From an uncultured Ignavibacteriaceae bacterium (lineage in GTDB: Bacteria > Bacteroidota > Ignavibacteria > UBA10030), in NCBI GenBank assembly GCA_964362905.1, contig CAYIHQ010000002.1, forward strand, positions 46,076 through 110,075: 64,000 nt of DNA, in the 5' to 3' direction. The notes beneath the pieces were generated by a model that was given only the letters and a program-made list of their open reading frames with translations, was not told the DNA's origin and did no database searches. The position numbers and the translations under genes are program-made. This document shows positions 14,928-63,438 of the stretch, piece by piece. Each line of letters starts with the position of its first letter. The first letter of the stretch is position 1.

Positions 14928-14953
14928 TCGTAACTCCTATTCAGATAATAGTA

Positions 14954-16123: not shown

Positions 16124-16231
16124 AGTATTTCTTTCATTAATTTATTTGGGGTCTATAAATGCTAATAACAATATTAACATGACCAACAATACGCCAAATC
16201 CTTGTACAATTGTAATAAGAAAATCTTCCAT

Positions 16232-47056: not shown

Positions 47057-47290
47057 CTACTTTTGTATTTCCTCTAATAAATTAGACAGTGTAGAAATAG
47101 CACTTTTATGTTCAACTAATGTCATAGTGTGCTTCATAAGCATTGATTTAGCGTCATTATCCAATACTGAATTTTTCTTTTTCATAATGCTAAGTTCTTC
47201 TACAATTTTAGCTATTTCTTTTTTGTGTACTGCTATTTTGCTATTTAAAGTAGCTAATATTTCAGGTAATGTTTTCATGTTTTTCTCCAT
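47057..47290 (-). CDS. hypothetical coiled-coil protein (77 aa)
   Basis: ORF. Confidence 0.3.
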   Translation of the reverse strand: MEKNMKTLPEILATLNSKIAVHKKEIAKIVEELSIMKKKNSVLDNDAKSMLMKHTMTLVEHKSAISTLSNLLEEIQK

Positions 47291-47552
47291 ATAAAATCTC
47301 AGCTTGCTTAGTAAGTTCCATCACTACTTTAGTATTAATAGTGGATCTAGTAACAGGCATATTTAAAGTTATAGGATTATCCATAAATTGACCGCTGGCC
47401 AGTTCAGTAGTCATGCTATCATACTTATCTTCATATATAAATAAGAATCGGTATCCTTCTTTATAAAATTGATTCATTGTATAAGGGTCAACTACTATAT
47501 ACTTATCTTTAATCATAGAAATAGGACCTCTAGTGCCTGATTGTCGGGCCAA
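47262..47552 (-). CDS. small protein ending ...QAEILYGEKHENIT (LYG-tail family)
   Basis: C-terminal motif. Confidence 0.35.
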   Translation of the reverse strand: MARQSGTRGPISMIKDKYIVVDPYTMNQFYKEGYRFLFIYEDKYDSMTTELASGQFMDNPITLNMPVTRSTINTKVVMELTKQAEILYGEKHENIT

Positions 47553-48037
47553 TTAATTTTGCAAATCTCACATATAAGCTTTATGTATCTTCTGTCTGTA
47601 TCGACAGAATGTGTTACGCTTTCTATTTGCAGTAATGTATGAAATGCTATGTCAGAAGAATTATCAATAGCATCAACTAGTATTCTTTTTCGTAAGTTAA
47701 AAAACTCGTTATTGTTCATAGAATAATTTTCATTCTTAGCAGTTTCGTCTAATTCTAGCATATAGTCTTTCATGATTTTACTATCTCCAGATACAGAATA
47801 GGCATCTAAAACTGATTTAAACTTAATCATGGCAGAACTATAAGCACTATATTTACTTTTACAAAACTTATGAGCTACATAAACTACCCTATTTTTAACG
47901 CTCATGCAATTTAAAGCTACTCCCAAAGCGGAAGTATATTGTCGTGATCTAAATTGAGATAGAACCTCGCCTATACCGTTAGTAGGTAATTTCTTCTTAG
48001 AAATCCTGTTTCTAAATACTTGCTTAATATTGCTCAT
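47513..48037 (-). CDS. hypothetical protein (174 aa)
   Basis: Operon ORF. Confidence 0.35.
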   Translation of the reverse strand: MSNIKQVFRNRISKKKLPTNGIGEVLSQFRSRQYTSALGVALNCMSVKNRVVYVAHKFCKSKYSAYSSAMIKFKSVLDAYSVSGDSKIMKDYMLELDETAKNENYSMNNNEFFNLRKRILVDAIDNSSDIAFHTLLQIESVTHSVDTDRRYIKLICEICKINWPDNQALEVLFL

Positions 48038-48903
48038 TTAAACATACCTGGCACATTATAGATAATTTTTCCGCCTTGTTTTTTTACGAATATTGTCCAT
48101 TTGATATTATACCTTTTAATGACTCTTGTCAAGATTTGTTGTACAGCTTGCTTACTTATTTCTTCTATATTGGCTATATGCGCAAAATTAAAATTTGTTT
48201 GATATATCATAATTAGTATGCATCTTTGTTTATGAGTCAATTCGTCGCCGTGGTCTTTTATGAAGCTTCTCATTATAGCAAATTCACTTAATTTGGTTAA
48301 AGCTGAATAGAATTCATACTTTACTCTAGCTTGATTATTTAGGTCTAACTCTTTTGCTATGGTTAGAAAGTCTTTACTCTCATAAAGATATTTTTTAACT
48401 ACAGATTGCCTGATGTCTGATAGGCAGTCCCAAGGTACTTCTATATTATTTAAGGCAGTTGGTCTTACAGAATTATCAGTTACATATTGTTCAGCATGAT
48501 TTTCTAATGTATCTTGTAGAATCAAATCTGGTTCTTTATTTGACCCCCTATTCAAAAAATCATTGACTTGATAACAAGGGCTATTACAGATCTTAGCTAT
48601 GGAACATATATTGCAATTAGCTAGGAATAGCTCGTCATTTTGAATATTGTGTGTAATCTTGAGCTGTTCTAAATAGGGCTTTGCAGTTTTTGATAGCCAA
48701 GGTAATGGCCTACCAACACATGAGGTGGTTAAGCAAACTTTTCTTTTTGGGCACTCATCTATAGAATAACCATAAGCTTCTATAGTTTCTTGCCTAATTA
48801 TGCGCATAATATTATCTCTAATGTCTCTATGAATTAGATTATGCCATGGAGCCATAGTACAGGCAGGAAACTTATAAGTTCTTTTAAATGTCTTTTCGTC
48901 CAT
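48034..48903 (-). CDS. Cys-rich protein with C-terminal HTH-like segment (possible transcription regulator)
   Basis: Several Cys pairs in the N-terminal half. EISKQAVQQILTRVIKRY is helix-turn-helix-like. Confidence 0.3.
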   Translation of the reverse strand: MDEKTFKRTYKFPACTMAPWHNLIHRDIRDNIMRIIRQETIEAYGYSIDECPKRKVCLTTSCVGRPLPWLSKTAKPYLEQLKITHNIQNDELFLANCNICSIAKICNSPCYQVNDFLNRGSNKEPDLILQDTLENHAEQYVTDNSVRPTALNNIEVPWDCLSDIRQSVVKKYLYESKDFLTIAKELDLNNQARVKYEFYSALTKLSEFAIMRSFIKDHGDELTHKQRCILIMIYQTNFNFAHIANIEEISKQAVQQILTRVIKRYNIKWTIFVKKQGGKIIYNVPGMFK

Positions 48904-49330
48904 TTATCTCTTCCTGCAATTTCTTGGCAATTCCCATCCATTTTAAGGTGGATTGTCTTTCTTGAGTTAATTCTTCTCTTAGTCGATTGATGTCTAGTTT
49001 TGCGCAATATTCGAACCATTCAAGTGGGGGTTCTTGTGACTTTAGGTATCTATCAATCTCCTCATCAGTAGTACATCCCATCTCTTTGCTCTTGGCTACT
49101 CTAAAATATTTTTTAGCCATGGGATGATTGCTTCTATCTTTATTCAAACTCCAAGCTTCGATGATCCATTCATATTTACCGCCACGATTTTCATGTTCTT
49201 CTTCCGCTGATTTCTTAGCTTTATCCAAATTATCAAATACTCCTACGGTATAATGATGACCTTCTTCTGAACCCCATCTATTCATAACGACTACATATAC
49301 GAAGTTATAAAGTATTTTCTTAGCGTCCAT
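48884..49330 (-). CDS. hypothetical protein (148 aa)
   Basis: Operon ORF. Confidence 0.35.
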   Translation of the reverse strand: MDAKKILYNFVYVVVMNRWGSEEGHHYTVGVFDNLDKAKKSAEEEHENRGGKYEWIIEAWSLNKDRSNHPMAKKYFRVAKSKEMGCTTDEEIDRYLKSQEPPLEWFEYCAKLDINRLREELTQERQSTLKWMGIAKKLQEEINGRKDI

Positions 49331-49589
49331 ACAGAAGTTTTCCTATTTTAGTTTTTTTAATTAATCTATCTTTTTTGCGGCGTTCTAATTCTAAGTATAA
49401 AAATGGTAATATTCTTTTAGATGTTCTAGACTTAACATGTTCAATAATTTTTTTTATGTGTCTGGGTCTTAAGTTGCATATTGGTATAGTTTGTCCGTCT
49501 AAAGTAGTCCAAATTTCTCCATAGCTGTATTGTATCTCTGGATCAGCTAAAAGTCTTTTAGGATACTGTTTATACTTTTTCACAAACAT
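49320..49589 (-). CDS. small basic protein ending ...KIGKLLYGR (LYG-tail family)
   Basis: C-terminal motif. Confidence 0.35.
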   Translation of the reverse strand: MFVKKYKQYPKRLLADPEIQYSYGEIWTTLDGQTIPICNLRPRHIKKIIEHVKSRTSKRILPFLYLELERRKKDRLIKKTKIGKLLYGR

Positions 49590-50122
49590 CCCTTATACAA
49601 TATATCAAAAACTTCAGCTTTTATGTTATTTTCTTTTAAAATCAGCTTTATTAAATAGTTTTTATATTCTTGTTGTTTGGCTGCAATAGGAGCATTGGTG
49701 GCACGGGCGGAGGAGGAGTCACGGGCGGTGGAGATGGCGGCATAGTCAGTAGCATGGGCGGCAGACAAGGCGACGGTGGAGGTAGTGGTATTGACGACTG
49801 CATAGGCGGCATATGCTGTGGCATAGGCGACGGAGGAGTCACGGGCGGTTATGGAGGGGACACTGGCGGTGGCATGGGCTGCATTGGCGGCCGTCCTAAT
49901 ATCTTTTTTAGAAACTTCCTTACCCAAAAGTAAGTCTCCCAAAATTTTCAACACTTTATTTTGCTTAATATAAATTTCTTTATATTTTGCATGATCATAA
50001 TTGGCCCTAGTATCTTTTACTACAAATATAAGAAACTTATACAAAATATTTTTATTGTCGTATTCTGCCAAAATAGTTTTTATGTCAGAACTCATAAGAC
50101 TTCTAAGATTTAACTTTTTCAC
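49580..50122 (-). CDS. Ala/Tyr-repeat protein, paralog A
   Basis: Conserved N- and C-terminal modules flank a low-complexity A/Y/S/T/H core. Ends ...FDILYKGCL. Confidence 0.5.
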   Translation of the reverse strand: MKKLNLRSLMSSDIKTILAEYDNKNILYKFLIFVVKDTRANYDHAKYKEIYIKQNKVLKILGDLLLGKEVSKKDIRTAANAAHATASVPSITARDSSVAYATAYAAYAVVNTTTSTVALSAAHATDYAAISTARDSSSARATNAPIAAKQQEYKNYLIKLILKENNIKAEVFDILYKGCL

Positions 50123-50592
50123 ATATACCTCATAACTAACTGTTCATATTTTTTACGCTTAATTTTATGTGAAGTGTTATACCTACTCCAATAATTTGGC
50201 TCTTTATAGTTTTTCTTCAAATCTTTTAGAATTTGGGCAGTACAATTTATTGAATAATCAAGATCAATAAGTAATCTGTTCTTATCAAAATTATAATATT
50301 TAATAGTTTTGATATTTATTTGTCCTATAGAATAGTCATTGCTTTTGCTCAAAACATTCAATTTATATGACGATTCTTGCATTAACATAGCTGTCAGTAT
50401 TTTTGAATCAATCTTGTGAACTTTGTGTATTTTATCAATTAAACTAGATAGTTTCACGGCATAGTTTTTATCAATAGTGGGATTATTCTTAATAATTTGA
50501 TGAAAAATAGGACTTGCCTGGGGTGATGTTGTTTTAGCGAATACTTTAATGGATAGTATTAATAACATGCTGATTATTATATTTTTTTTCAT
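50119..50592 (-). CDS. lytic transglycosylase (SLT domain) with signal peptide
   Basis: Signal peptide MKKNIIISMLLILSIKVFA. LMQESSYKLN and YSIGQINIK are SLT catalytic-region motifs. Confidence 0.6.
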   Translation of the reverse strand: MKKNIIISMLLILSIKVFAKTTSPQASPIFHQIIKNNPTIDKNYAVKLSSLIDKIHKVHKIDSKILTAMLMQESSYKLNVLSKSNDYSIGQINIKTIKYYNFDKNRLLIDLDYSINCTAQILKDLKKNYKEPNYWSRYNTSHKIKRKKYEQLVMRYM

Positions 50593-51059
50593 ATGATCTT
50601 ATTTCCATATAGTATTGAGAATGCTTTGCAGTCAATTTTGTTATCCTCTAATACTAGCTTGATTAAATATTGTTTGTATTCTTGTTGTTTGGCGACATGG
50701 GCGGCAATGGTGGCGGCAATGGTGGCGGCATGGGAAGCGGAGTGGGCGGCATAGGCGGCGGAATTGGCGGCATGGGAAGCGGAGGTGGCATGGGCGGCGG
50801 CAAAGGCGGCGACAAAGGCGGCCTCAATATCTTTTTTGAGAACCACCTTACCCAAAAGCAAGTCTCCTAAGATTTCCAACACTTTATTTTGCTTAGCGTA
50901 AATTTTTTTATATTTACTGTGGGCATAATTGAGCATAGTATCTTTTACTACAAATATGAGAAATCTATATAAAATAGACTTTGAATAATATTTTTGTAAT
51001 ATACTTTTAATATCAGAATTAATTAAAGTTTTAATATTCAAAGTTTTCATTAATAACAA
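50589..51059 (-). CDS. Ala/Tyr-repeat protein, paralog B
   Basis: Same flanking modules as A. Core AAFVAAFAAAHATSASHAANSAAYAAHSASHAATIAATIAAHVA. Ends ...FSILYGNKII. Confidence 0.5.
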   Translation of the reverse strand: MLLMKTLNIKTLINSDIKSILQKYYSKSILYRFLIFVVKDTMLNYAHSKYKKIYAKQNKVLEILGDLLLGKVVLKKDIEAAFVAAFAAAHATSASHAANSAAYAAHSASHAATIAATIAAHVAKQQEYKQYLIKLVLEDNKIDCKAFSILYGNKII

Positions 51060-51649
51060 TCCTCTGGAAATCTAAGTAAGGTTATCTTAACAGTTTTAGC
51101 TCCATCTCTATATTCTTCGAATATACCGCCTCTATGAGAGAATAGTTCTTTTTCGCCGAATATTTCCTCTTCTGTTAATTTTCTTCCGAGTTTCTTTTCT
51201 ATTCGTTTAACTTGAGAAGTATCAGGTATAATAACTGAACAACTAGCTATAGGTAGAAATATTTTATTAGTAAAGCCACATCCAAAAATATCGTCAGGAT
51301 ATTTTTTGCTATATGCCCATCTATCGTATAATTCCATAAACATTGAATCAAAAGATATGTTCTTTAGATACTCCCATTGCTTTTCTTTGGGTAGTAAATC
51401 ATATTGATAAAATTCTTTTTCCCAAATAATGAGCCTATTTCCAGAACACTTCTGTAATCCGCTATCATCTAAAGTAAGTTTTGATAAACAATTAGGACAA
51501 AAAATAAAATTACTTCGAGTATTGTTTATTACTTTTTTATCTTTAGTTTTAAACTTCTGTACTATGACCTTTTGGCCACTTACTTCAGTTTCATATTCAG
51601 CTATTATGTCTTTGTTCTTTTTCTTCATCTTTTTGTAGAACCTTTCCAT
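51050..51649 (-). CDS. hypothetical protein with zinc-ribbon (CPNC ... CSGN)
   Basis: Four-Cys pattern. Confidence 0.4.
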   Translation of the reverse strand: MERFYKKMKKKNKDIIAEYETEVSGQKVIVQKFKTKDKKVINNTRSNFIFCPNCLSKLTLDDSGLQKCSGNRLIIWEKEFYQYDLLPKEKQWEYLKNISFDSMFMELYDRWAYSKKYPDDIFGCGFTNKIFLPIASCSVIIPDTSQVKRIEKKLGRKLTEEEIFGEKELFSHRGGIFEEYRDGAKTVKITLLRFPEDCY

Positions 51650-51806
51650 CTTGGATTACATAACCATTTTTGTTACAAAACCCGATGAAGCTTTCTATTA
51701 CTGCAATAACAATACCATTATCGTCTTTTCCATAATTCACCCAGTGGTTAATAGAATCAGATTTAATTTCAGAATATTGTTTATTACTAAGTTTAATTTC
51801 TTTCAT
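51597..51806 (-). CDS. small hypothetical protein (69 aa)
   Basis: ORF. Confidence 0.3.
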   Translation of the reverse strand: MKEIKLSNKQYSEIKSDSINHWVNYGKDDNGIVIAVIESFIGFCNKNGYVIQDGKVLQKDEEKEQRHNS

Positions 51807-52309
51807 ATATATAACATACCATAAGTTTTAGTATTAATTCCATTTTCTTCTAATACTAGCTTTATTAAATAGTTTTTATATTCTTGTTGTTTGGCTGCAT
51901 AGGCGGCATCGGCGGCATAGGCGGCGGCATAGACGGCATTGGCGGCATAGACGGCGGCATAGACGGCATCGGCGGCATAGACGGCGGCATAGACGGCATT
52001 GGCGGCATAGACGGCGGCATAGACGGCATTGGCGGCGGTGGTGGCGGCATAGGCGGCGGCATTGGGGGCATTGGCGGCTGTCCTAATATCTTTGCTAGAA
52101 ACTTCCTTACCCAAAAGTAAGTCTCCCAAAATTTTCAACACTTTATTTTGGGAATCATAAACTTCGCTATGGTTTTTACAGTCATAAGTGGCCCTAGTAT
52201 CTTTTACTACAAATATAAGAAATCTATACAAAATAGACTTTGAATAATGTTGCTCTAGAATATTTCCTATACCAGAATTTTGCATTTGTTTTAAATCTAT
52301 TTTTGACAT
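51803..52309 (-). CDS. Ala/Tyr-repeat protein, paralog C
   Basis: Core AVYAAVYAANAVYAAVYAADAVYAAVYAANAVYAAAYAADAAYAA. Flanks near-identical to A at the DNA level. Confidence 0.5.
   Translation of the reverse strand: MSKIDLKQMQNSGIGNILEQHYSKSILYRFLIFVVKDTRATYDCKNHSEVYDSQNKVLKILGDLLLGKEVSSKDIRTAANAPNAAAYAATTAANAVYAAVYAANAVYAAVYAADAVYAAVYAANAVYAAAYAADAAYAAKQQEYKNYLIKLVLEENGINTKTYGMLYI
51895..52075. repeat. 15/30-nt tandem repeat (ggcggcatagacggc / attggcggcatagac) coding for (AVYAAVYAA[N/D])n
   Basis: Read directly. Similar but degenerate tracts at about 49685..49900 and 50690..50830. Confidence 0.8.
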
Positions 52310-52323
52310 ATTATATTCTGGCC

Positions 52324-53787
52324 TTATCTTTTTACTCGTTTAGTAACAACAATTTTAGTTTTAGAACCGAAATTTATTGAAGAGTCTAGAGTGTGTGGCG
52401 GAGTTAAGCCCCATAAAACTTGATATTTAGGTTTTTTAATGTTTTCGTTCCAACATCCTCCATCAGTACAGTAAATTAAACCGTCAATTTCCAATTTTTC
52501 TTTTTCAATAAAATCAAACACTGGCTTAAATGCTGTTCCGCCTCGACCATGGACTTTAAATTCTTTGCGAGGGTCAAACTTATAAGGCTTATTATTAATT
52601 TGTGTATCACATTCAATTACAGTTAGATCAACTCCCATATTATGTAATCTGATCATTTCTGCATGAAATTGCCCTAATTCTTCATCCCCAACTGAGCCAG
52701 ATGTGTCAAGGGCTACAACTAATTGCAATTTAGGAAAAGTTTTATTTCCAGGGTATAAAATACCATATCGTCTATTTCTTTTCTTTCTTGTTGATTCTAT
52801 CAATATTTCAGAGCATCTAGCAGAGAATTTTTGTATATCTCCACGCCAGTCCTTTGGAACATAATTAAGTTTTTCGATAGCTGCAATAACATCACCTGGC
52901 AACTTACCCATATCTTTATCGGCTGTTTGTTCTGCTGCTTTATTGACAGCATCTTTTACCTTTTGAGTAATATCATCTTCAGTATTATCAGTTTCGTGCC
53001 AGATATTGTGGTCATCAAGAACTATATATTGTTCTGCGCCATTTTCTCCATTCTTTTCTTGTTGTTCTTTAAGAAATTCGTAGTAGTACTCCATTGTTTG
53101 TCTGTTTTCAATATTTGGGAATTTCTTTTTAAGAAGTTCGACGAATATCAAATCTGCCTCAACTGGCATACCAGCATCTTTATCGGGATTGGGGATATTG
53201 TTACCTTTTTCGTCCTTGATGTGAGTTGGTACATTAATAGTGTTACCATTATGGTCAAACATCTTGACCTTACGAGGAAGGTTGGGCAAATATTCATTTA
53301 TGGCAGCATCGGCAGCTTTATTAGTTGTACTGGCTTTTTGCATATCCATAATACGATCAAAAATTGATTTATCTACATTATCAAATACTTTAGGCTCAAT
53401 ATCTCTAAATCTAACAAAATGATTATTAATAACATGATGAGCCTCATGTTTCAAAACATCTACTCTCTGCGGCAAATTCATTGCACTAAAAAAATAAGGA
53501 TTAATATGAAGATTAACTTGATCCGTGACGCTAACTCCAAGCGTTGGCAATTTTACCGTGAATTCTCTGCGCATACCCATGATAAGATTAGCATAGAAAG
53601 GTTCAGCGAATATCAATTCCACAATAGTTTGTTCAAGCAGTTCTTCTGCCTTACCAGTAATTCTATTAAGTCTCTCTTGATCGAGAGGTTCTTGGTGTGG
53701 CTGTTTAGTAGCTTCTTTTTTAGTTTCTTTAGAGCGCATTTTAAACCTCTCATTAGTTAAAGGGTAACAGCAGCCTGTCAAACTCAC
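52324..53787 (-). CDS. vWA-domain protein with N-terminal HExxH putative metallopeptidase module (DUF2201-like partner of MoxR ATPases)
   Basis: LKHEAHHVINNH (HExxH). VVALDTSGSV fits the MIDAS DxSxS motif. Confidence 0.6.
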   Translation of the reverse strand: MSLTGCCYPLTNERFKMRSKETKKEATKQPHQEPLDQERLNRITGKAEELLEQTIVELIFAEPFYANLIMGMRREFTVKLPTLGVSVTDQVNLHINPYFFSAMNLPQRVDVLKHEAHHVINNHFVRFRDIEPKVFDNVDKSIFDRIMDMQKASTTNKAADAAINEYLPNLPRKVKMFDHNGNTINVPTHIKDEKGNNIPNPDKDAGMPVEADLIFVELLKKKFPNIENRQTMEYYYEFLKEQQEKNGENGAEQYIVLDDHNIWHETDNTEDDITQKVKDAVNKAAEQTADKDMGKLPGDVIAAIEKLNYVPKDWRGDIQKFSARCSEILIESTRKKRNRRYGILYPGNKTFPKLQLVVALDTSGSVGDEELGQFHAEMIRLHNMGVDLTVIECDTQINNKPYKFDPRKEFKVHGRGGTAFKPVFDFIEKEKLEIDGLIYCTDGGCWNENIKKPKYQVLWGLTPPHTLDSSINFGSKTKIVVTKRVKR

Positions 53788-53854
53788 AACTCTAGTATGG
53801 ACTAATTAACAATTAGGACATCAAAGCATGTGACGCTATTATATAAAAAAAGAA

Positions 53855-54952
53855 TTACAGGTCTTCGAGTTTCATGTTACGAGCATTAGCAAGAATCTTT
53901 AGTAGATCTTCGCTATTATCAATGATTTCACGAGCATTATCTTCTAGATATAGATTACGACATAAGTCGAAAGCCAAATCTTTTGGTATAGTTTTCAAGA
54001 ACTCCACAATATTAGAACTCTGTTCTTTAGTGGGCTTCTTTTTAAGTTCTTGAATCGATTCAAAGAGGCTATCACAAGTATACTTAAGCATATCTTGACG
54101 CCCTCCAGTTTTAGCATCAGAATACTTCTTAATTCTAGACGCTACTTTATCGTAACTATCAAGAATATCTTTACCGTTAATTGGCTTATCAGTGTCACTA
54201 AGTGACTTTATAAATGCCGCACTAGCCGCAGTGCCGACCAATCCAGATGTTAGTTCACGCAATAAATTGACTGGAGTCTTAATAGACATTAATCTATTAA
54301 CTGCTTCCCAAGAGCGTCTTGATGGTTTTACATCAACATCAAAAGATTCTAATTCAGTTTGTAGCAGGGTTGGCTGATCTTGTAAAAATTGGATTAATTG
54401 CGGTTCAAACTTACGAAACTTAGCATAATCAAAAAACTCTTGTTTACTTGGTGCTAGTTTAATATGACAGAAACGGTCCATTAAAGCTTTATCTGAAATA
54501 TCAGTAACAATATAATCTTCGGTATTTGGGTTCATCGCACTAATTACATAGAAATTGGATGGAAATGTTGTGGCGTGGATGCGTTTTTCTGTCAACAAAG
54601 GAAATATAACTTGTAACACATCTCTACGAGCACGATTAATTTCATCAAGAAACAGAATAGCCTTTTTGTCTGGATTAGCTAAACAAAACTCATTGATCTC
54701 TTTAGCCCAATCTGGCATCATAAATTGAGTAGATACATTATTACCGTCTTTGTCTTTCTTAAAGTCTGCTAGACCGATAATATCCCCTACTTCTTGGGTA
54801 CCCAAATTCAGGATTTTTAGAAGTGCTTTTTCTACTTTAGCATATTGACTCACGCCTTGAGTTTTGCCTATTCCATGATGTCCTACTAATAATGCTGGAA
54901 TTTCAGCCTCTATTAGATATGGTAATGCTTCTTTTAAGGTTTTAATGTTCAT
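53855..54952 (-). CDS. MoxR-type AAA+ ATPase
   Basis: Walker A LLVGHHGIGKTQ. Walker B ILFLDEINRA. About 365 aa, single AAA module. Confidence 0.7.
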   Translation of the reverse strand: MNIKTLKEALPYLIEAEIPALLVGHHGIGKTQGVSQYAKVEKALLKILNLGTQEVGDIIGLADFKKDKDGNNVSTQFMMPDWAKEINEFCLANPDKKAILFLDEINRARRDVLQVIFPLLTEKRIHATTFPSNFYVISAMNPNTEDYIVTDISDKALMDRFCHIKLAPSKQEFFDYAKFRKFEPQLIQFLQDQPTLLQTELESFDVDVKPSRRSWEAVNRLMSIKTPVNLLRELTSGLVGTAASAAFIKSLSDTDKPINGKDILDSYDKVASRIKKYSDAKTGGRQDMLKYTCDSLFESIQELKKKPTKEQSSNIVEFLKTIPKDLAFDLCRNLYLEDNAREIIDNSEDLLKILANARNMKLEDL

Positions 54953-55736: not shown

Positions 55737-55976
55737 TTATTTTAAATCTTCATCTAATTGAGTTACCATTAATACTCTGGTTGTCTTAGTTTCATAAGTA
55801 TCCAGCAAAGTTTCATTAACAGTTTGCTTCACAATGTGAACAATGTTAATATCATCATTAATAACTAATGATTTAATATGTTGTCTAGCTTCTCGTAAGC
55901 TAGGGAATTTATCGATAATTTCATTGTTAACTCTTACGATATAGGTTGTTAGTATTGTTTTTACTTTTGGTGCCAT
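55737..55976 (-). CDS. small array protein (79 aa)
   Basis: First ORF of the tandem small-gene array. Confidence 0.35.
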   Translation of the reverse strand: MAPKVKTILTTYIVRVNNEIIDKFPSLREARQHIKSLVINDDINIVHIVKQTVNETLLDTYETKTTRVLMVTQLDEDLK

Positions 55977-56200
55977 AGTATCTCAAGTCCTTTACCGCAT
56001 TTACCCAAATTTACATAACTATGATCCATAAACAGCAAGAATTCGGTATGTAGTTTGCCAGTATTTACATTTTCTACTCTTATTGTAGAAAATGTTTTGT
56101 CTTCATATCCATGATGTATATATTTTATTTCATATAAAACGCAAGAATTTTTAGACTTTATTATATCTCCAATATTCCAATTATTTACTTTTTCTACCAT
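55961..56200 (-). CDS. small array protein, N-terminal IGDII, ends ...LEILWHQK
   Basis: Overlapping array ORF with a variant tail. Confidence 0.35.
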   Translation of the reverse strand: MVEKVNNWNIGDIIKSKNSCVLYEIKYIHHGYEDKTFSTIRVENVNTGKLHTEFLLFMDHSYVNLGKCGKGLEILWHQK

Positions 56201-56426
56201 ACAATACCTTGGTAGCTTTAGTATTTTTAACTTTGATACAATTATCTAATAACTTTTCTTCATAATATCTTTTATAAGATACTTCCTTGTTATTACTCAC
56301 TTCTTTTAAAGTATACAAATGCCCTTTAGGATAAGAACCTACATCATCCACAACAAAAGCTTTCTTTTCTTCTTTATGCATAAAAACATCGTTAATCTTA
56401 GCTTTAAATTTAGATTTCTTTGCCAT
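56181..56426 (-). CDS. small array protein ending ...ATKVLYGRKSK
   Basis: C-terminal motif. Confidence 0.45.
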   Translation of the reverse strand: MAKKSKFKAKINDVFMHKEEKKAFVVDDVGSYPKGHLYTLKEVSNNKEVSYKRYYEEKLLDNCIKVKNTKATKVLYGRKSK

Positions 56427-56578
56427 GTTTTTGCTCCAATTCTAGAATTAGTTCTTCGATCCATTCTAATTCTCTTTCTAATTCTTTTAATTGCCTATCG
56501 TCGGCTTCTATCATCATTGTACAAACATCGTAACGCTGCATTTCTAATTCTCGTAAAGTCACTTATTACTCCTATTAT

Positions 56579-57316
56579 TTAATAATTTTTTAATTCTCTC
56601 AATACTTTAGATGTTAGTAATGCTGCCGATTGAGAGGTGCCAGATAGAACTATCTCTGAGTCATTAATACCTAATCCTTTTACTTCTTTCCCGTCAAGTA
56701 TATAGGTATTTTTGCCGAAAGAATAATTACTAGTAGCATTAAGATCTTTATTATTTTTACCATTCATTACTACCATGATTCTTTTATCGCACATAGCAGG
56801 GTAACTTTTATATCTGTCTATGTTGAGGCTATTATTCCCTGCTGCGGCTATAACTTTTATTCCCTTGTCTAAAGCCCTAGTTAGTAGAGCGCATTCTAAC
56901 TTAGAATGATATAATCCCGAAATAGATAGATTAATTATTGCTACTTTTAAAGCGATTGCGTGAGAAATAGCCTTGATTACTGTCGATAAAGTATCAACTT
57001 TAGGGTTTTTATCAAAATATTTTAATTCAACTATACAATAGTTAATCTTATCATTACCAGAAGCTATTAAGCTACTTATATGAGTGCCGTGGGAGTGGTT
57101 GTCCATGACAGAAGTACCTGTAAAGTCTTTATGCCCACTTTTACATAGTTTGGGTTTACTTAGCTTAGAGTTGTGCCATTTGCTGGCAAAGTCAAATCCA
57201 GTATCAATGACTGCCACCTTAATTTGTTTAGCATGGGCATACGGCTGCACAACAAATACCGTCAAAATGCTAAGCACTATAATTGCCCATTTCTTATTTA
57301 TGTTTCCCATAAGCAC
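56579..57316 (-). CDS. subtilisin-like (S8) serine protease with signal peptide
   Basis: VAVIDTG (Asp), HGTHISS (His), GTSQSAA (Ser). N-terminal hydrophobic signal. Confidence 0.65.
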   Translation of the reverse strand: MLMGNINKKWAIIVLSILTVFVVQPYAHAKQIKVAVIDTGFDFASKWHNSKLSKPKLCKSGHKDFTGTSVMDNHSHGTHISSLIASGNDKINYCIVELKYFDKNPKVDTLSTVIKAISHAIALKVAIINLSISGLYHSKLECALLTRALDKGIKVIAAAGNNSLNIDRYKSYPAMCDKRIMVVMNGKNNKDLNATSNYSFGKNTYILDGKEVKGLGINDSEIVLSGTSQSAALLTSKVLRELKNY

Positions 57317-57341
57317 CTCATTATTATGCTATGCAATTAGC

Positions 57342-57590
57342 TTACCAGGCCCATTTACAGCTTATTTGCTTCTCTATAGCGGCTTTCTGTATAAGAAACA
57401 GCCAACTGCTGTATTCTTTGACGATCTTAGGGGTATATTGCTTATCTAAATGTTCAACTATCTTGTTTAAGCCCGATTGTATATATAAGGCTTCTCCAGC
57501 CTTTTTTATAGCCTCTTCCTCATTATTTGCCTTGGTTATCTGGCATGTCAGGAATAGCATCAGATTTAATAATACCATCTTTAGAACCAT
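57342..57590 (-). CDS. small secreted protein next to the subtilase (possible propeptide/inhibitor); overlaps the next ORF
   Basis: Signal peptide MVLKMVLLNLMLFLTC. A 68-nt overlap with 57523..57849 makes one of the two starts uncertain. Confidence 0.25.
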   Translation of the reverse strand: MVLKMVLLNLMLFLTCQITKANNEEEAIKKAGEALYIQSGLNKIVEHLDKQYTPKIVKEYSSWLFLIQKAAIEKQISCKWAW

Positions 57591-57849
57591 ATAACACCTT
57601 CATTACATCAGGATTAACTTTTACATAGGTTAAGTTAATAAGTTGTTTTGGCACCTTGAAACAATCGCAATCATCCCCTTTATCCTCATCTTCAAGCCTT
57701 AGCCACACATTAAGGGAGTCGATTTTGATAACAAAATATAATTTCTTATTGCCCTTATCCATAAGGAAATTATTTTTATGGATCTCTTCTTTTAGGGTAC
57801 TCATATTATACCTTCTTGTCAAATAAAATTTTGGTAGCTTTAGTATCAA
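57523..57849 (-). CDS. small array protein with internal ...VMKVLYGSKDG motif
   Basis: Motif about 20 aa from the C-terminus. Confidence 0.4.
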   Translation of the reverse strand: MILKLPKFYLTRRYNMSTLKEEIHKNNFLMDKGNKKLYFVIKIDSLNVWLRLEDEDKGDDCDCFKVPKQLINLTYVKVNPDVMKVLYGSKDGIIKSDAIPDMPDNQGK

Positions 57850-58063
57850 TTATTTCTAGATACTCATCATCACTGTCTCTAATATAAAATTCAGTACAAT
57901 ATACATCTTCTAGTTCCATAACGGAAAGTGTTTCTAAGGCTCTCCTATAATGCGCCAGCGCAAATCCTAAAAGAATATCAGCATCCCACGCATGTACCTT
58001 ATTACATAGGTCTTCGATAGCTTGTTCTTTGATTAGAGTAATCTTTCTTTTCTTCTTGCTCAT
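57806..58063 (-). CDS. small array protein ending ...ATKILFDKKV
   Basis: C-terminal motif. Confidence 0.4.
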   Translation of the reverse strand: MSKKKRKITLIKEQAIEDLCNKVHAWDADILLGFALAHYRRALETLSVMELEDVYCTEFYIRDSDDEYLEIIDTKATKILFDKKV

Positions 58064-58205
58064 CTTGAAGTTCCTTTTCTGCCTGTTTTAGCAATCGTTT
58101 AAATCTGTCGCCATCATATTGAGCCACATACTGTTGTCTAAACTTTAAGAAAGCTAGGCGATCTTGTGTCGAAATACAAACCATCAGTTCTTCTAATGCA
58201 TCCAT
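58002..58205 (-). CDS. small helical protein (67 aa)
   Basis: ORF. Confidence 0.3.
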   Translation of the reverse strand: MDALEELMVCISTQDRLAFLKFRQQYVAQYDGDRFKRLLKQAEKELQDEQEEKKDYSNQRTSYRRPM

Positions 58206-58804
58206 TACTTATTACTCCCATATAATACTTTTACCATTTTGTCGCCTTGAGTTTCATAGCCAGCAAGTAAGCTGTCTAAATCCAGACTGCTTAGTTCGGC
58301 TAGTTGAGTTTCCAATCCAGATCGTTCGTTATTATATTCTTGAATATAATTATCATGTTGCTCGGTGATAGATTTGATCTTCTCTGGTAATTCTTTTTGA
58401 ATCCTTTTTATGGACTCTGATTTGTTATAAATAGATTTTTCTATATTTAGCATAAGAGATTTTCTTACCTCATCTGGAGTTGAAATTTTAGTATTGGCAT
58501 TAACTTTTTTAATTGAAAGTGGTTTATTTAGTATATTCGCACCATTCCAATTTGAGCTAAACCAGTTATTAACAAAATATTTGCTAGCATTTTCATAGCT
58601 GTATTTGCACTTTTTACGGAGAGAATTTAATCTGGTAACTTCTGCTATCGCAGAAGCCTCATCGTAATAGATACAATCTTCATGAGGATAATTTTTTCGG
58701 CAAGTTATAAATCCTATGCGAACAAAAAATGTATTTCCATTATGTTTTTTAGTAATAACATAAGCGTTGTTAAGGTTTTTGAGTTTTAGATATTTATTTT
58801 CCAT
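58205..58804 (-). CDS. array protein (199 aa) ending ...MVKVLYGSNK
   Basis: C-terminal motif. Coiled-coil middle. Confidence 0.45.
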   Translation of the reverse strand: MENKYLKLKNLNNAYVITKKHNGNTFFVRIGFITCRKNYPHEDCIYYDEASAIAEVTRLNSLRKKCKYSYENASKYFVNNWFSSNWNGANILNKPLSIKKVNANTKISTPDEVRKSLMLNIEKSIYNKSESIKRIQKELPEKIKSITEQHDNYIQEYNNERSGLETQLAELSSLDLDSLLAGYETQGDKMVKVLYGSNK

Positions 58805-58806
58805 AA

Positions 58807-59037
58807 TTAACCTGCAATCTTTTTATTTTTGAAGTCAACATATACTATGTTTTTGTACTTAGGGTATTCTTCAAATAAGACAAACCTGTTATTCATAGTT
58901 TGAGCATTATACCTTCCATAAGTATTGTTTTCATACGCTACCGTAAAGAGCCCTGCTTTGAATTCTTCTAGTACTCCATTGAGATTTCTTTTTGTGCAAT
59001 AGACTTTGTCTCCCAATCTAAACTCTCGTGCTTTCAT
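58807..59037 (-). CDS. small array protein (76 aa), KOW/SH3-like start MKAREFRLGDKVY
   Basis: RBS GAGGAG. Lies downstream of a promoter-like element. Confidence 0.45.
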   Translation of the reverse strand: MKAREFRLGDKVYCTKRNLNGVLEEFKAGLFTVAYENNTYGRYNAQTMNNRFVLFEEYPKYKNIVYVDFKNKKIAG

Positions 59038-59056
59038 ATTTTACTCCTCATACAAT

Positions 59057-59116
59057 AATACTAATGCAGTATTGGTGCCAGTTCAGTCCTCATTATATTC
59101 GTTCTGAGTGTTTATG
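59057..59116 (-). promoter_or_regulatory. promoter-like element (minus strand CACTCAGAACGAATATAAT) plus downstream 6-bp hairpin aatact-aatgc-agtatt
   Basis: Perfect TATAAT about 45 nt upstream of the GAGGAG/ATG of 58807..59037. About 80% identical to the copy at 63822..63882. Confidence 0.4.
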
Positions 59117-59412
59117 TTGTTTACACTGTCCATATTTTGATTGACACTTTCGCTATAGAGTAGCTCAAAGGTCTTAGGTGGCGCTTTCACTTTTTTACCG
59201 AATTTTGTGTATAAAATAGCATCTCGATCTTCAAAAATACCCTTAGATATAAAAATTTTTTTATTTTCTGTAACATCCCACTCTTCAGTTACTACATAAT
59301 TAGGATTAAGTGGATCTATTTTAATAATTTTTACTAAAGTTCCTAGTATTCCCATATCAGTACTTTTGTATCCTACCACATCCATAAAATACCAGTCATT
59401 TACTTTTATCAT
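59083..59412 (-). CDS. small array protein with ...TFELLYSES motif
   Basis: Motif near the C-terminus. Its 3' end overlaps a promoter-like element. Confidence 0.4.
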   Translation of the reverse strand: MIKVNDWYFMDVVGYKSTDMGILGTLVKIIKIDPLNPNYVVTEEWDVTENKKIFISKGIFEDRDAILYTKFGKKVKAPPKTFELLYSESVNQNMDSVNNINTQNEYNED

Positions 59413-59561
59413 ATGCTGCCATTTCTTTGTAGTTGAAGGGATTATTTATGATGTCATTAGTATAATATTCCATACAATCTACTTGTTCCCCTTGAATTAT
59501 ATATTTAGGGTTTATAGCTTCAAGATTAGGACATAATTGTATAATTAAAGCAGTTATAATT

Positions 59562-59783
59562 TCAATTGTCATTTTCTAGTTCCCATACATTAAAGTCCAA
59601 ATATTCTCGTCCGTCAAAATCAGTTTCTCTACGACAACATTTACCTTTAGGAGGTAGCATTCCCCATTTTTCTAATTGAGCAAGTAATACTTTAGCCTGA
59701 CCGTAAGTCCCATCCATTCGCATAGTAGATTGATCTCTACCCAGCCATTTACCTATATTGGTTATCATTTCACTTCGTTTCAT
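59562..59783 (-). CDS. GMLPP-motif small protein, paralog 3
   Basis: MKRSEM...WGMLPP...WELENDN. Confidence 0.45.
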   Translation of the reverse strand: MKRSEMITNIGKWLGRDQSTMRMDGTYGQAKVLLAQLEKWGMLPPKGKCCRRETDFDGREYLDFNVWELENDN

Positions 59784-59994
59784 TATCAGTCTCCTGTTTC
59801 TTTACTTCATAAATGCTGTCGAACCACCAGAAAAATACAATCCAAAATGTGAATGCGGCGGCAATTGCAGAGAAACTATCTAGATGCTTTAAGGTATTAG
59901 AAATACCATTATACAATAGTATCATACAGATTAATGTGATTCTATTCATATTAATAACTCTTGAGTTGATAGCGATAATTACCTCTAGTATCAT
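59770..59994 (-). CDS. small membrane protein (74 aa)
   Basis: Two TM segments. Confidence 0.35.
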   Translation of the reverse strand: MILEVIIAINSRVINMNRITLICMILLYNGISNTLKHLDSFSAIAAAFTFWIVFFWWFDSIYEVKKQETDNETK

Positions 59995-60202
59995 AAACCT
60001 TAATTACGCTAGTATGCTCATCTTTTGTAATACCCCAACTTTCGGGGATCGGAACTTCAAGGCACTGCATCTCATTTCTTACAGCAGCATAAAAATCATC
60101 TATCTCGTAATTATTAATTTGAATTTCTCCAATATAGTTAGTATTATTGATACTTCCAAAGCGATCAGCATATATTTGTAGTACTTCAAAATTTTTATAC
60201 AT
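59951..60202 (-). CDS. small array protein (83 aa)
   Basis: ORF. Confidence 0.35.
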   Translation of the reverse strand: MYKNFEVLQIYADRFGSINNTNYIGEIQINNYEIDDFYAAVRNEMQCLEVPIPESWGITKDEHTSVIKVYDTRGNYRYQLKSY

Positions 60203-60387
60203 TAGTTCATCTCCTGTTTAGACATTTGTTTGAGTATCTTATCAATTCGATTGAATACATATTCAGATATATAACCTTCTTTATCTTTGCCCATAAGGGC
60301 GGCGATAACTAGGGCTAAAAACTCGCTATCGGCGTAGGTCTCTAATTCGCTGGAGGTTATTTTTTTAGTCGTTACCTTTTCTTGCAT
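60202..60387 (-). CDS. small hypothetical protein (61 aa)
   Basis: ORF. Confidence 0.3.
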   Translation of the reverse strand: MQEKVTTKKITSSELETYADSEFLALVIAALMGKDKEGYISEYVFNRIDKILKQMSKQEMN

Positions 60388-60616
60388 GATACTCCTCTCT
60401 TACTTCGTGCCAAGGCTTAATAGGCCATTTAGTAGTGGTGCGTTCTTTATACATTTTCATATATTCTGCAAGTATAATTAGCTGTTCGTCAAGCTTTTCT
60501 TTAGTTTGGTTGTCAATTTTTTTATCTTCGAGGGCCATCTCAAGAATGATCTTCATGTTAGCAATACCATTTAATTCCATATTAAGCCACCCAATTCCAG
60601 CCGTCGCATGGTGCAA
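60365..60616 (-). CDS. small hypothetical protein (83 aa)
   Basis: ORF. Confidence 0.35.
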   Translation of the reverse strand: MHHATAGIGWLNMELNGIANMKIILEMALEDKKIDNQTKEKLDEQLIILAEYMKMYKERTTTKWPIKPWHEVREEYHARKGND

Positions 60617-60827
60617 GATCTGTTAAGTCCCTTGTTCTAGACACGATATGACCCTTTAATTCAGACATATAGACATCGCCCATTTCAGTCTCAAAGCCCA
60701 TCACAACGCATTGAATCACATCATCCTTAAACTTATTATCAGTGACATAATATTCCCAGCCATTTCTCAAAATGATATGTTCTACAATATTAATTTGACT
60801 GCCATATTGATTCTGCATTTTTCTCAT
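60582..60827 (-). CDS. small hypothetical protein (81 aa)
   Basis: ORF. Confidence 0.35.
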   Translation of the reverse strand: MRKMQNQYGSQINIVEHIILRNGWEYYVTDNKFKDDVIQCVVMGFETEMGDVYMSELKGHIVSRTRDLTDLAPCDGWNWVA

Positions 60828-60837
60828 CTTGAACTCC

Positions 60838-61074
60838 TTAGTTAGTTGTTACATTATTACCATACAATACCTGTGCCATAGGACTATATTCATAATTCGT
60901 GAGTAATCTCGTGTAGCTGAGTGTATAATACAATTTATTAGGGCTGTTAATAGGTTGGACATCATACGCATGTATACCGTCCTCACTCTCAAAAACCTCA
61001 ACAATTCTAATTATGTATCCAATGTGCCGATTTCTAAAGCAATCGCCTATTTTATATACAGTCTTATTTTCCAT
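60838..61074 (-). CDS. small array protein: N-terminal YKIGDCF, C-terminal ...AQVLYGNN
   Basis: Motifs at both ends. Confidence 0.45.
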   Translation of the reverse strand: MENKTVYKIGDCFRNRHIGYIIRIVEVFESEDGIHAYDVQPINSPNKLYYTLSYTRLLTNYEYSPMAQVLYGNNVTTN

Positions 61075-61300
61075 ATAATAACCTTATAACCTCCGAATGT
61101 GTCCCTAATGGTCTATATAGCTCTATTAGCCTCTCCAATGGCATGTAACTAGTAACACCTTCGTTCTCAAACACCAAAGCCTTATATACCACATCGGCAG
61201 GTATTAACGGAGTATTAAGCATAATTACGGCTTTTACTACGGATATCTTATCTCTTACAGTATCGTATATAAATATGCCGTCATGATAAGGATTATTCAT
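61064..61300 (-). CDS. small array protein ending ...VIRLLYGK
   Basis: C-terminal motif. Confidence 0.45.
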   Translation of the reverse strand: MNNPYHDGIFIYDTVRDKISVVKAVIMLNTPLIPADVVYKALVFENEGVTSYMPLERLIELYRPLGTHSEVIRLLYGK

Positions 61301-61595
61301 ATAACACCTTCACACCTCTATCACCTTTAATCATAGCAGCTACAACCTTAAACTCTTCATCAACGGCCATTGCTACTAATCCACTAAACGTAGGAATCAT
61401 ATGCTTATGATAAAATAAATCAAGTCCTAGTTTATTGAATGTTTCACTTCGAATAGCTACAAAAGTCTGAACGGTGTCTTCAAAGCCCGCAGTATAATTT
61501 TTTTGTGGATATTCGTACACATTAACAATACATTCTAGTGGCATAAGAAACTTAGTCTTTCCAGTTGTTAGAGTTATACTATTACTAAAATTCAT
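61293..61595 (-). CDS. small array protein ending ...GVKVLYE
   Basis: RBS AGGGAG. Lies downstream of the AT-rich palindrome region. Confidence 0.45.
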   Translation of the reverse strand: MNFSNSITLTTGKTKFLMPLECIVNVYEYPQKNYTAGFEDTVQTFVAIRSETFNKLGLDLFYHKHMIPTFSGLVAMAVDEEFKVVAAMIKGDRGVKVLYE

Positions 61596-61618
61596 ATTTA
61601 TCTCCCTAGTATATTATA

Positions 61619-61657
61619 AGTAATACAATCTATTTTTAATAAATAGATTGTATTACT
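61619..61657. promoter_or_regulatory. perfect 17-bp inverted repeat (agtaatacaatctattt / aaatagattgtattact, 5-nt spacer) in a 195-bp AT-rich gap
   Basis: Read directly. On the minus strand it is immediately followed by TATAAT, then AGGGAG and the ATG of 61293..61595. Confidence 0.5.
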
Positions 61658-61789
61658 ATATTATATATATATATTATATAATACTTATTATATATATCCT
61701 ATAGTATATTATACATTGAATCACATATAAAACAATTAATATTTTACATTTATTATTACTTATTTGAATAATCTAATAATATTAAGTCC

Positions 61790-62044
61790 TTACTTTCCAT
61801 ATAATAGCTGTAGTGCTTTATAATTTATTTGACTTTCGTTATCTACTGATGCTATATAAATAGAGTCATCTGGTCTTGCTTTAGAATAAATTTTATCCTT
61901 TATACACCAACCAGTTTCTCCCTTATAATTAATGCATTTATGGTCAAGACTACAAAATATACGCCTTACCTTTATGGAATCTATCTCCTCATTTACATGA
62001 AAGCCAGTGCCATACTCCATTTTTTTTATAATATATCTAGCCAT
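61790..62044 (-). CDS. small array protein ending ...ALQLLYGK
   Basis: C-terminal motif. Confidence 0.45.
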   Translation of the reverse strand: MARYIIKKMEYGTGFHVNEEIDSIKVRRIFCSLDHKCINYKGETGWCIKDKIYSKARPDDSIYIASVDNESQINYKALQLLYGK

Positions 62045-62047
62045 ACA

Positions 62048-62654: not shown

Positions 62655-62655
62655 T

Positions 62656-62913: not shown

Positions 62914-62921
62914 ATGAAATT

Positions 62922-63155: not shown

Positions 63156-63157
63156 TT

Positions 63158-63436: not shown

Positions 63437-63438
63437 AA

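Follow-up and report, generated by a model that had tools for sequence, protein, structure and literature searches.

The 64,000-nucleotide stretch of DNA analysed here (the window) covers positions 46,076 to 110,075 of contig CAYIHQ010000002.1 in assembly GCA_964362905.1, deposited as an uncultured Ignavibacteriaceae bacterium, and it carries on its minus strand two neighbouring phage genes, one for an AAA+ ATPase and one for a protein in which a predicted zincin-like metallopeptidase domain is fused to a von Willebrand factor A (vWA) domain. The ATPase gene is an open reading frame (ORF) at 53855..54952 (minus) with a product of 365 residues, and the fusion gene, identified by Pfam and PHROG matches, occupies 52324..53739 (minus) and encodes 471 residues. 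They are separated by an intergenic spacer of 115 bp (53740..53854, minus), similar in size in the relatives, in which a GAGAGG ribosome-binding site precedes the ATG at 53739 by about 8 nt. A preliminary description of this DNA had placed the second gene at 52324..53787, with an HExxH motif and a vWA domain bearing a MIDAS (an adhesion site that depends on a metal ion). Both domains were recovered, but the proposed start was not, because the Shine-Dalgarno sequence and an identical database gene call make ATG 53739 the most likely start rather than GTG 53787. Residue numbers of the vWA protein follow this 471-residue form throughout.

The vWA protein is identical to P0001, a public gene call of 471 residues on a 113-kb metagenomic phage contig, and the European Nucleotide Archive (ENA) contig 'Hain_H41_01um...length_113278', whose name suggests that the phage came from groundwater, carries genes identical to the pair. 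The source phage is estimated at about 113 kb and appears to belong to a lineage otherwise unclassified, with no close cultured relative. Its PolA found its best match in a Flavobacterium phage at 33% identity, the best match of the vWA protein among deposited phage genomes stays below 30% identity, and the 2.6-kb region of the pair gave zero megablast matches among 50,697 phage records. A consensus scan around the pair revealed no excess of promoter- or terminator-like sites over shuffled sequences, and signal peptides and membrane segments were absent from both proteins on inspection of their sequences.

Both genes are, almost certainly, divergent members of the phage N4 gp24/gp25 family (PHROGs 1297 and 1314). 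The ATPase matched N4 gp24 by BLASTP (E 4e-15) and phrog_1297 across residues 1-356 (1.4e-50), while the vWA protein matched phrog_1314 over its full length (1.1e-59) and was aligned to N4 gp25 by hhalign over residues 47-462 with a probability of 99% (E 3.8e-18). A DUF2201 assignment, listed in the preliminary description among the families to be checked, was confirmed for the vWA protein, in which DUF2201_N ('putative metallopeptidase domain', 41.2 bits against a cut-off of 23.2) is followed by DUF2201 ('VWA-like domain', 48 bits against 26.4); N4 gp25 is itself a strong member of the family (3e-87 and 1.4e-46), which COG names 'predicted metal-dependent peptidase'. The window pair and N4 gp24/gp25 have in common the gene order, strand, short spacer and full-length homology, and also the Walker A and B motifs, sensors, arginine finger, HExxH...H, NxAxDxxxN helix, RR-aromatic motif and MIDAS. 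They differ in sequence (about 24% identity) and are carried by unrelated phages, and the window vWA protein exceeds gp25 by about 90 residues, owing to a beta-rich insert (about residues 150-215) and to a loop of low complexity within the protease domain.

The family is large. Among the same 50,697 phage records, tblastn found homologues of the pair at 21-32% identity in N4-like phages (LUZ7 'N4 gp25-like protein', Vibrio 1.097.O, Alteromonas AD45, Erwinia Pastis and others), in jumbo phages (AR9/PBS1/Internexus, phage G, PA5oct-like phages and Atu_ph07, ASV44729) and in Thermus phiFa, Moorella MTATph1, Vibrio phiKT1024 and cyanophage S-TIM5. At E<=1e-3 an exhaustive profile search collected 21,259 clusters of 50% identity, of which 13,780 reached E<=1e-10, and the best 120 matches of a search seeded with N4 gp25 were all N4-like phage contigs. 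When bacterial genomes were scanned with an alignment of 34 diverse vWA-protein homologues, 43-84% identical (alignment A1), a single match was obtained, on an 88-kb contig of a metagenome-assembled genome that is probably itself phage. The genes gp24 and gp25 are counted among the core genes of N4-like viruses/Schitoviridae (PMC7650795), and the same pair already figures in Iyer et al. 2021, where MoxR, vWA and metallopeptidase parts were recognised in it, with the example ASV44729.1/ASV44728.2 of Atu_ph07 (PMC7824862). The window pair is an ordinary new member of this widespread and already described phage gene pair, not a new system. The possibility raised in the preliminary description, that it would turn out to be a generic CobS/CobT homologue conserved across the phage lineage, was largely realised, in that a generic module was found that is conserved across the lineage and in unrelated phages, but this module is not a CobS/CobT homologue.

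The single AAA+ module announced for 53855..54952 from GHHGIGKT and FLDEINRA is fully present, with all ATPase motifs and a match to Pfam AAA_5 (41.9 bits, cut-off 22, E 1.2e-10). Conservation was examined in an alignment of the window family (A2) and in a cross-lineage alignment (A6). Walker A (GHHGIGKT, residues 24-31, 54860..54883, minus) has G27, G29 and K30 invariant in both, and Walker B (ILFLDEINRA, residues 99-108, 54629..54658, minus) has D103 and E104 invariant in A2 and E104 invariant across lineages; among the best 120 ATPase homologues, Walker A was kept in 117 and Walker B in 118. Sensor 1 (SAMNP with N141, 54527..54541, minus), the arginine finger (MDRF with R160, 54470..54481, minus) and sensor 2 (PSRRSW with R213 and W215, 54308..54325, minus) are likewise invariant in the window family and across lineages, these four residues being unchanged in N4, AR9, phiFa, the Moorella phage and Atu_ph07. 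Between the Walker motifs, residues 55-82 (VGDIIGLADF...PDW, 54707..54790, minus) correspond in the AlphaFold2 (AF2) model to a helix-2 insert with a beta-hairpin, a presumed pore-facing loop, in which the invariant G60 is preceded, three positions earlier, by an acidic residue in 9/9 lineage representatives.

The AF2 model of the ATPase (predicted local distance difference test, pLDDT, 89.5) consists of a Rossmann-type core and a helical lid. Strands 62-66 and 72-77 form the helix-2 hairpin between helices 55-59 and 81-92, a short hairpin precedes the sensor-1 strand (134-140), and an additional helical region of about 100 residues is found at the C-terminus. Foldseek searches of this model against the PDB gave as best matches the cryo-electron microscopy (cryo-EM) structures of NorQ/NorQD (2026; 2e-9), followed by CbbQ, McrB, CHU_0153, RavA and BchI, whereas profile searches against PDB chains ranked McrB first (3e-4), ahead of CbbQ (0.076), CobS (0.097) and NorQ (0.9); single-sequence searches of either protein of the pair against PDB chains gave no matches, and profiles gave weak ones. 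The Pfam models AAA_3 (MoxR proper, 18.1 bits against 27), bpMoxR (15.8 against 27) and Mg_chelatase (19 against 20.3) remained below threshold. Sequence by itself does not distinguish MoxR from McrB for this protein. Taken with the structural neighbours, the data support an ATPase of MoxR type, as first described, which forms a separate subfamily of the MoxR/AAA_5 assemblage within the helix-2-insert clade.

In the vWA protein, the motif HEAHHVINNH (residues 98-107, 53419..53448, minus) is the predicted zinc-binding and catalytic HExxH with a conserved downstream histidine (H98, E99, H102 and H107). Its motif residues are invariant in 34/34 sequences of A1, and H98, H102 and H107 are unchanged across six phage lineages in a second alignment, made up of N4, the AR9-like phages, phiFa, the Moorella phage, Atu_ph07 and the window family. 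The helix NKAADAAINE (53293..53322, minus), with N140, D144 and N148 invariant in A1 and the latter two invariant across lineages, is a candidate carrier of the third metal ligand. The AF2 model (pLDDT 82) contains in its N-terminal domain a three-stranded sheet (strands 57-79), a helix with the HExxH (89-104) and a helix with D144 (138-148), which is a zincin topology, followed by a lineage-specific beta-rich insert, a helical region, a linker and a compact terminal vWA domain. No solved structure in the PDB was significantly similar to the N-terminal domain by Foldseek, and a broader profile gave weak matches to HtpX (M48) and to the minigluzincin MJ1213 across the segment formed by the strand and the HExxH helix. 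From motif, topology and conservation, the domain is predicted to be a zincin-like metallopeptidase.

The vWA domain carries the full DxSxS...T...D MIDAS. It is composed of DTSGS (residues 345-349, 52693..52707, minus; D345, S347 and S349), GRGGT (residues 398-402, 52534..52548, minus; T402) and CTDG (TDG at 425-427, 52459..52470, minus; D426), all five residues being invariant in A1 and across lineages, so that the MIDAS, whose loss had been named as a reason to abandon the first interpretation, is intact. DxSxS was kept in all of the best 120 vWA homologues. By Foldseek, this C-terminal domain resembled vWA/integrin I domains (Cav alpha2-delta, ArnB paralogue VWA2 and CLCA1, with E-values of about 1e-4 to 1e-3), and among predicted viral structures full-length matches included PBS1, S-TIM5, N4-like Pseudomonas and Klebsiella phages and a crAss-like virus. 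Right before the first vWA strand, in a linker of low confidence (pLDDT <50 at residues 315-333), lies the arginine-rich motif RKKRNRRYG (residues 318-326, 52762..52788, minus), with R318, R321, R323 and R324 invariant in A1. The form RxRR[YF]G was found in 119/120 homologues, and R324 is unchanged in N4, the AR9-like phages, phiFa, the Moorella phage and Atu_ph07. LDDHxxW (residues 241-247) is invariant in the 34 diverse homologues, and W298 is unchanged across lineages.

The importance of the HExxH site was indicated by inteins. Among the best 120 vWA homologues, HExxHxxxxH is intact in 112, missing in one fragment and split by an intein in seven (P0020, P0028, P0037, P0092, P0093, P0115 and P0118, of 790-843 residues). 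The intein is of the LAGLIDADG type, has about 365 residues and is placed between E99 and residue 100 (LKHE/C...HN/CHHV, slashes marking its ends); the window gene lacks it, the equivalent site being 53440..53445. Inteins characteristically occupy the most conserved catalytic sites of important proteins, and their insertion precisely at this point therefore argues that the HExxH site is functionally important. In five other homologues (P0095, P0104, P0111, P0114 and P0117), pairs of DnaJ-type CxxCxGxG zinc fingers are inserted in a variable loop of the protease domain, with a precomputed Pfam DnaJ_CXXCXGXG match in P0104, which suggests polypeptide substrates; the equivalent loop in the window protein (about 53040..53080) is a short Gly/Asn/Glu stretch.

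The Atu_ph07 homologue ASV44728.2 (locus L012, 8196..9485), which with its ATPase and with AR9 g028/g029 has the same family and architecture as the window pair, has HQxxH in place of the HExxH kept in the window family, and may be catalytically inactive. This substitution favours an explanation in which the HExxH domain is a non-proteolytic module for substrate binding or structure and the pair acts as a chaperone only, remodelling or assembling a replication or transcription complex of the phage; NorQD, CbbQO and RavA-ViaA do remodel their targets without degradation, and the ATPase is labelled 'putative transcription factor' in PBS1-type records. Such a role is nevertheless quite improbable, since HExxHxxxxH is kept by every homologue of the window family that is complete and free of an intein, and also by N4, the AR9-like phages, phiFa and the Moorella phage, the catalytic Glu is kept in 9/10 lineage representatives, and homing of inteins into the motif implies that it matters.

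A different function is given to the second protein in databases, where phrog_1314 bears the name 'HNH endonuclease', which has been passed on to many RefSeq records, N4 gp25 (NC_008720 EPNV4_gp25) among them. Even with E-values up to 10 allowed, Pfam assigned no HNH family to the vWA proteins of the window, of N4 (gp25) and of the AR9-like phage, and the label is an annotation error, the proteins being zincin plus vWA. That the pair could be a nuclease system, with an HNH endonuclease as its second component or organised like McrBC, can hardly be credited: this label and the rank of McrB as best sequence-level PDB match of the ATPase profile speak for it, but no HNH or nuclease model matched these three proteins, the histidine motif is an HExxH set in a zincin-like fold pattern, to which a vWA domain with a MIDAS is attached, and a McrC-like partner is absent.

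The two genes travel together. The ATPase gene was found directly upstream of the vWA gene on the same strand in 11/11 metagenomic loci with enough flanking DNA, and the same adjacency occurs in N4, Internexus/AR9, phiFa, the Moorella phage and Atu_ph07, with three small genes, one of them an RNase H, between the two in phiFa. In the window, the pair lies within a minus-strand block of 50 kb, with about 30 small ORFs upstream and with genes for an SLT transglycosylase, a sigma-like protein, a metallophosphoesterase, a PD-(D/E)XK nuclease, an ERF recombinase, a primase-helicase, a ligase and PolA downstream, while the structural genes, at 1-14 kb of the window, are read from the other strand; relatives 42-53% identical have the same synteny. 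The earlier assignment of the pair to the early region is consistent with this arrangement of small ORFs upstream and of sigma-like, PD-(D/E)XK, ERF, primase-helicase, ligase and PolA genes downstream. In N4, where the pair precedes the replication genes, its neighbours are RNA polymerase (RNAP) II, dCTP deaminase, rIIA/B and a helicase. The neighbours are RNAP, RNase H and DnaB in phiFa, a DNA helicase in the Moorella phage, DNA pol I, glutaredoxin and RNA ligase in Atu_ph07, and gyrase B in AR9. The pair thus lies among replication or nucleic-acid genes in six unrelated lineages, that of the window included. No gene is conserved beside it across N4, the AR9-like phages, phiFa, the Moorella phage, Atu_ph07 and the metagenomic loci.

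Expression data are available for two of these phages. In AR9, a primary transcription start site with the early (virion-RNAP) promoter consensus is located at 21888, just upstream of g028, and the values at 5, 20 and 40 min, in fragments per kilobase per million (FPKM), were 88, 464 and 378 for g028 and 77, 595 and 465 for g029 (Lavysh et al. 2017, PMC5312081). This profile is like that of the gyrase and helicase genes, whereas virion genes had about 0-3 FPKM at 5 min and rose late, 41 of the 43 virion protein genes being late (PMC5312081). N4 gp24/25 have been cited as middle transcripts (PMC4193335). Because of the early profile in AR9 and the middle-gene status in N4, the module is expected to work before or during replication.

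This timing bears on the published guess for the jumbo-phage pair, made by Iyer et al. 2021 for Atu_ph07 by analogy with the MoxR/vWA pair of the Acidianus two-tailed virus (PMC7824862), that it serves virion assembly; in that case it would fold or assemble capsid or tail proteins as a chaperone and its peptidase would process them as a maturation protease. The archaeal virus does encode a comparable viral pair, p618 (MoxR-like) and ORF892 (vWA), the latter a weak structural match at rank 48 limited to the vWA fold, and MoxR/vWA pairs are generally maturation chaperones. However, the analogy rests on the vWA and AAA folds, as the archaeal pair has no zincin domain and a role in extracellular tail development, and the early promoter and early-type profile in AR9, set against 41/43 late virion genes, and the middle expression in N4 argue against the guess. 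The location of the pair among replication genes in the window and in five other lineages, outside the structural block and in the window on the strand opposite to it, points the same way. Virion assembly is for these reasons regarded as unlikely, and the assembly chaperoning listed in the preliminary description coincides with the published guess but conflicts with the timing of expression.

The closest solved structures belong to NorQ/NorD and CbbQ/CbbO, which like the window pair combine a single-module MoxR ATPase containing a helix-2 insert with a neighbouring MIDAS-vWA gene. The likeness is at the fold level, as neither CbbQ_C nor the N-terminal domains of NorD or CbbO were found in the window pair by Pfam or NCBIfam, the models of the latter giving only noise with both proteins. 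The ATPase differs from NorQ and CbbQ in its extra C-terminal helical region of about 100 residues, and the partner differs from NorD and CbbO in carrying a protease domain, in its much smaller vWA domain and in its model, where no beta finger is evident; what NorQD and CbbQO act on, cNOR and Rubisco, has no relevance to a phage. In NorQ/NorD, each hexamer binds one vWA protein, whose finger enters the pore and touches the helix-2 inserts and which also makes a C-terminal contact, the MIDAS binds acidic residues of the target, and ATP hydrolysis twists or stretches the linker of the partner (PMC13036017, PMC9976466). The authors of the NorQD cryo-EM work propose the finger-in-pore arrangement, together with the C-terminal contact and a MIDAS that binds acidic residues of the target, as general for MoxR/vWA pairs (PMC13036017), and by analogy with it the hairpin of the helix-2 insert in the window ATPase would face the pore and take part in its function.

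CobS/CobT and BchI/BchD also join an ATPase of the AAA+ helix-2-insert clade to a vWA-containing partner, and a role in cofactor handling for a cobalamin-dependent ribonucleotide reductase (RNR) of the same region had been suggested at first. A cofactor- or metal-insertion machine of the CobS/CobT, BchI/BchD or NorQ/NorD kind that serves this enzyme is, on the evidence, extremely improbable. The window does encode a class II reductase of the adenosylcobalamin (AdoCbl) type, namely a ribonucleoside-triphosphate reductase-like protein at 22133..23989 (minus; TIGR02505 1.1e-73, below the curated cut-off), but it is located about 28 kb from the pair and not next to it. NorQ, CobS and BchI are among the structural or sequence neighbours of the ATPase, and phrog_249 ('porphyrin biosynthesis') matches its AAA core (residues 11-162) at 1.6e-11, far behind phrog_1297 at 1.4e-50; against this, the profiles of CobS, CobT, NorD and CbbO and the chelatase-specific models remained unmatched, the similarity being limited to the AAA fold. 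Moreover, the partner carries a zincin domain, whose protease active site would be out of place in a chelatase or insertase, no gene for a large third subunit (CobN/BchH-type) is found near the pair, and the pair is core in Schitoviridae regardless of the nucleotide-metabolism content of the phage. CobS and CobT act in corrin biosynthesis and not in the loading of RNR, which also counts against this explanation.

The interpretation that we favour as the most likely, with moderate confidence, sees in the pair an ATP-driven, MIDAS-targeted and substrate-selective machine, a split AAA+ metalloprotease or a remodeller, that would do its work ahead of late gene expression. It is supported by the intact motor, the conserved zincin site and MIDAS, the obligate pairing of the genes and their early or middle expression. 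By analogy with NorQ/NorD and CbbQ/CbbO, the ATPase would form a hexamer on which one zincin-vWA protein would dock. The contact could be made by the RR-aromatic linker motif and the conserved basic C-terminus on one side and the acidic residue of the helix-2 insert on the other, although the assignment of the arginine-rich linker as an ATPase-engaging or pore element is a conjecture. The MIDAS metal would then capture an acidic residue of a specific cytoplasmic target, which may be either a host factor or a phage protein, hydrolysis of ATP would strain or partly unfold the captured target, and the tethered zinc protease would cut it.

Several observations weigh against this mechanism. The vWA domain is minimal (about 135 residues) and its model has no obvious NorD-like beta finger, the HQxxH of Atu_ph07 means that catalysis may be dispensable in some lineages, in favour of a chaperone without proteolysis, and in Vibrio phiKT1024-like genomes the ATPase and vWA genes are about 46 kb apart. 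Early transcription is also compatible with a later job in the cycle. No functional or biochemical study of any family member was found in the searchable literature, and the main texts of the CRISPRi-ART and PA5oct papers make no mention of the pair.

A narrower form of the split-metalloprotease reading, in which the phage uses this two-polypeptide machine to capture (MIDAS) and cut (zincin) one cytoplasmic protein early in infection, is proposed tentatively and must be considered doubtful; the target could be a host factor, a defence protein or the phage's own early proteins. As a special case of the favoured interpretation, the pair might be a counter-defence or host-takeover effector that captures and cleaves an immune or housekeeping protein of the host. 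The logic of a MoxR ATPase with a vWA-peptidase is common to the bacterial vWA-MoxR ternary conflict systems (Kaur et al. 2020), in which the peptidase of the vWA polypeptide is rarely a metallopeptidase, and to those of a BREX preprint, and both the expression in early or mid infection and the wide but patchy spread among unrelated lytic phages would suit such an effector. Yet it is rather unlikely, because PADLOC gave nothing above noise (no match for the vWA protein and one sub-significant AAA-core match, E 0.0017, for the ATPase), bpMoxR remained well below its cut-off, and no third (sensor) gene is conserved across lineages. Third components of the VMAP, iSTAND, beta-propeller or FtsH kind were likewise not found, and the pair differs from the ternary systems in being phage-encoded and core-like rather than variable; core status in Schitoviridae and inteins in the active site are more typical of essential housekeeping-type functions than of variable accessory genes. 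The connection to conflict systems or anti-defence that had been considered at the outset is accordingly left without a match to any known system.

Other genes around the pair were also inspected. A 199-residue protein with a CPNC...C motif (51050..51649, minus), which has no counterpart among Pfam or PHROG families, comes after the vWA gene in six related loci (immediately after it in L014 and L015) and is missing from more distant relatives and from the other phage lineages; it was rejected as a third component of the module, its position being taken as lineage synteny. The sigma-like gene (48034..48903, minus) encodes 289 residues with a sigma-70 region-4-like helix-turn-helix at the C-terminus (Sigma70_r4 2.3e-05; phrog_1740 'RNA polymerase sigma factor' 1.9e-06), and it is kept in the relatives a few genes downstream of the pair. 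Within the early/middle block are also found a subtilisin-like S8 peptidase (56579..57316, minus; Pfam 4.2e-15) and the SLT lytic transglycosylase (50119..50592, minus; 1.3e-08), both with hydrophobic N-termini that resemble signal peptides and both recurring in relatives. A protein of the IMP dehydrogenase/GMP reductase family (17108..18157, minus; Pfam IMPDH 6.9e-91) belongs, like the RNR, to the nucleotide metabolism of the phage, and neither has an evident tie to the pair.

Just downstream of the vWA gene, and interleaved with conserved genes, are three paralogous proteins of 156-180 residues (51803..52309, 50589..51059 and 49580..50122, minus) that were found only in this phage and gave no family matches. 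They share N-terminal parts of about 75 residues and C-terminal parts of about 30, and their centres are variable, Ala/Tyr-rich and encoded by GC-rich tandem repeats of 9-42 nt such as GGCGGCATA. In the second copy, the repeat length is not the same in the window as in the ENA contig.

Many early proteins of the window end in a common peptide with the consensus [TS]-K-A-x-K-[VIL]-L-[YF]-G-K-K-stop, their ORFs being located at 14314..16200, 47262..52309 and 55737..63666 on the minus strand. The pattern [ILVM]L[YFW] was found within the last 12 residues of 23 of 123 non-overlapping ORFs, compared with 3.0 +/- 1.6 in residue shuffles (maximum 9 in 2000 shuffles) and with a rate of 2.2% in internal 12-residue windows, and the strict form hL[YF]G in 9/123 tails against 0/1533 internal windows. 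All 23 ORFs are in the minus-strand early/middle block and none in the structural block, and the tail is joined to unrelated N-terminal parts. An explanation at the DNA level was rejected, since codon choice varies freely, and selection therefore acts on the peptide, which may be a degron or a tail for docking to a hub. Some relatives carry it, in 13/51 (L008), 5/27 (L014) and 6/25 (L013) cases, and it is absent from the N4, AR9-like, phiFa, Moorella phage and Atu_ph07 loci. As its distribution does not track the MoxR-vWA pair, a connection between them is speculative, and the idea that in the window clade the machine reads the shared '[TS]KAxK[VIL]L[YF]G' tail is very improbable.

The question of what gp24/gp25 do is not made easier to answer by the window alone. 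What it contributes is a divergent subfamily that sharpens which residues are universal, the observation of inteins inside the HExxH of homologues, which argues for an essential protease site, and collected evidence that the virion-assembly guess is at odds with the timing of expression; the intein site, the universal residues and the timing are useful for experimental design. The pair is core in N4-like phages and is present in several jumbo phages used in therapy research, within a very large family, and to learn what it cleaves or remodels would close a gap of long standing in the infection programmes of N4 and AR9. If the selective early protease were confirmed, it would be a conserved device for host takeover or for timing across Schitoviridae, AR9-like and other jumbo phages and the clade of the window.

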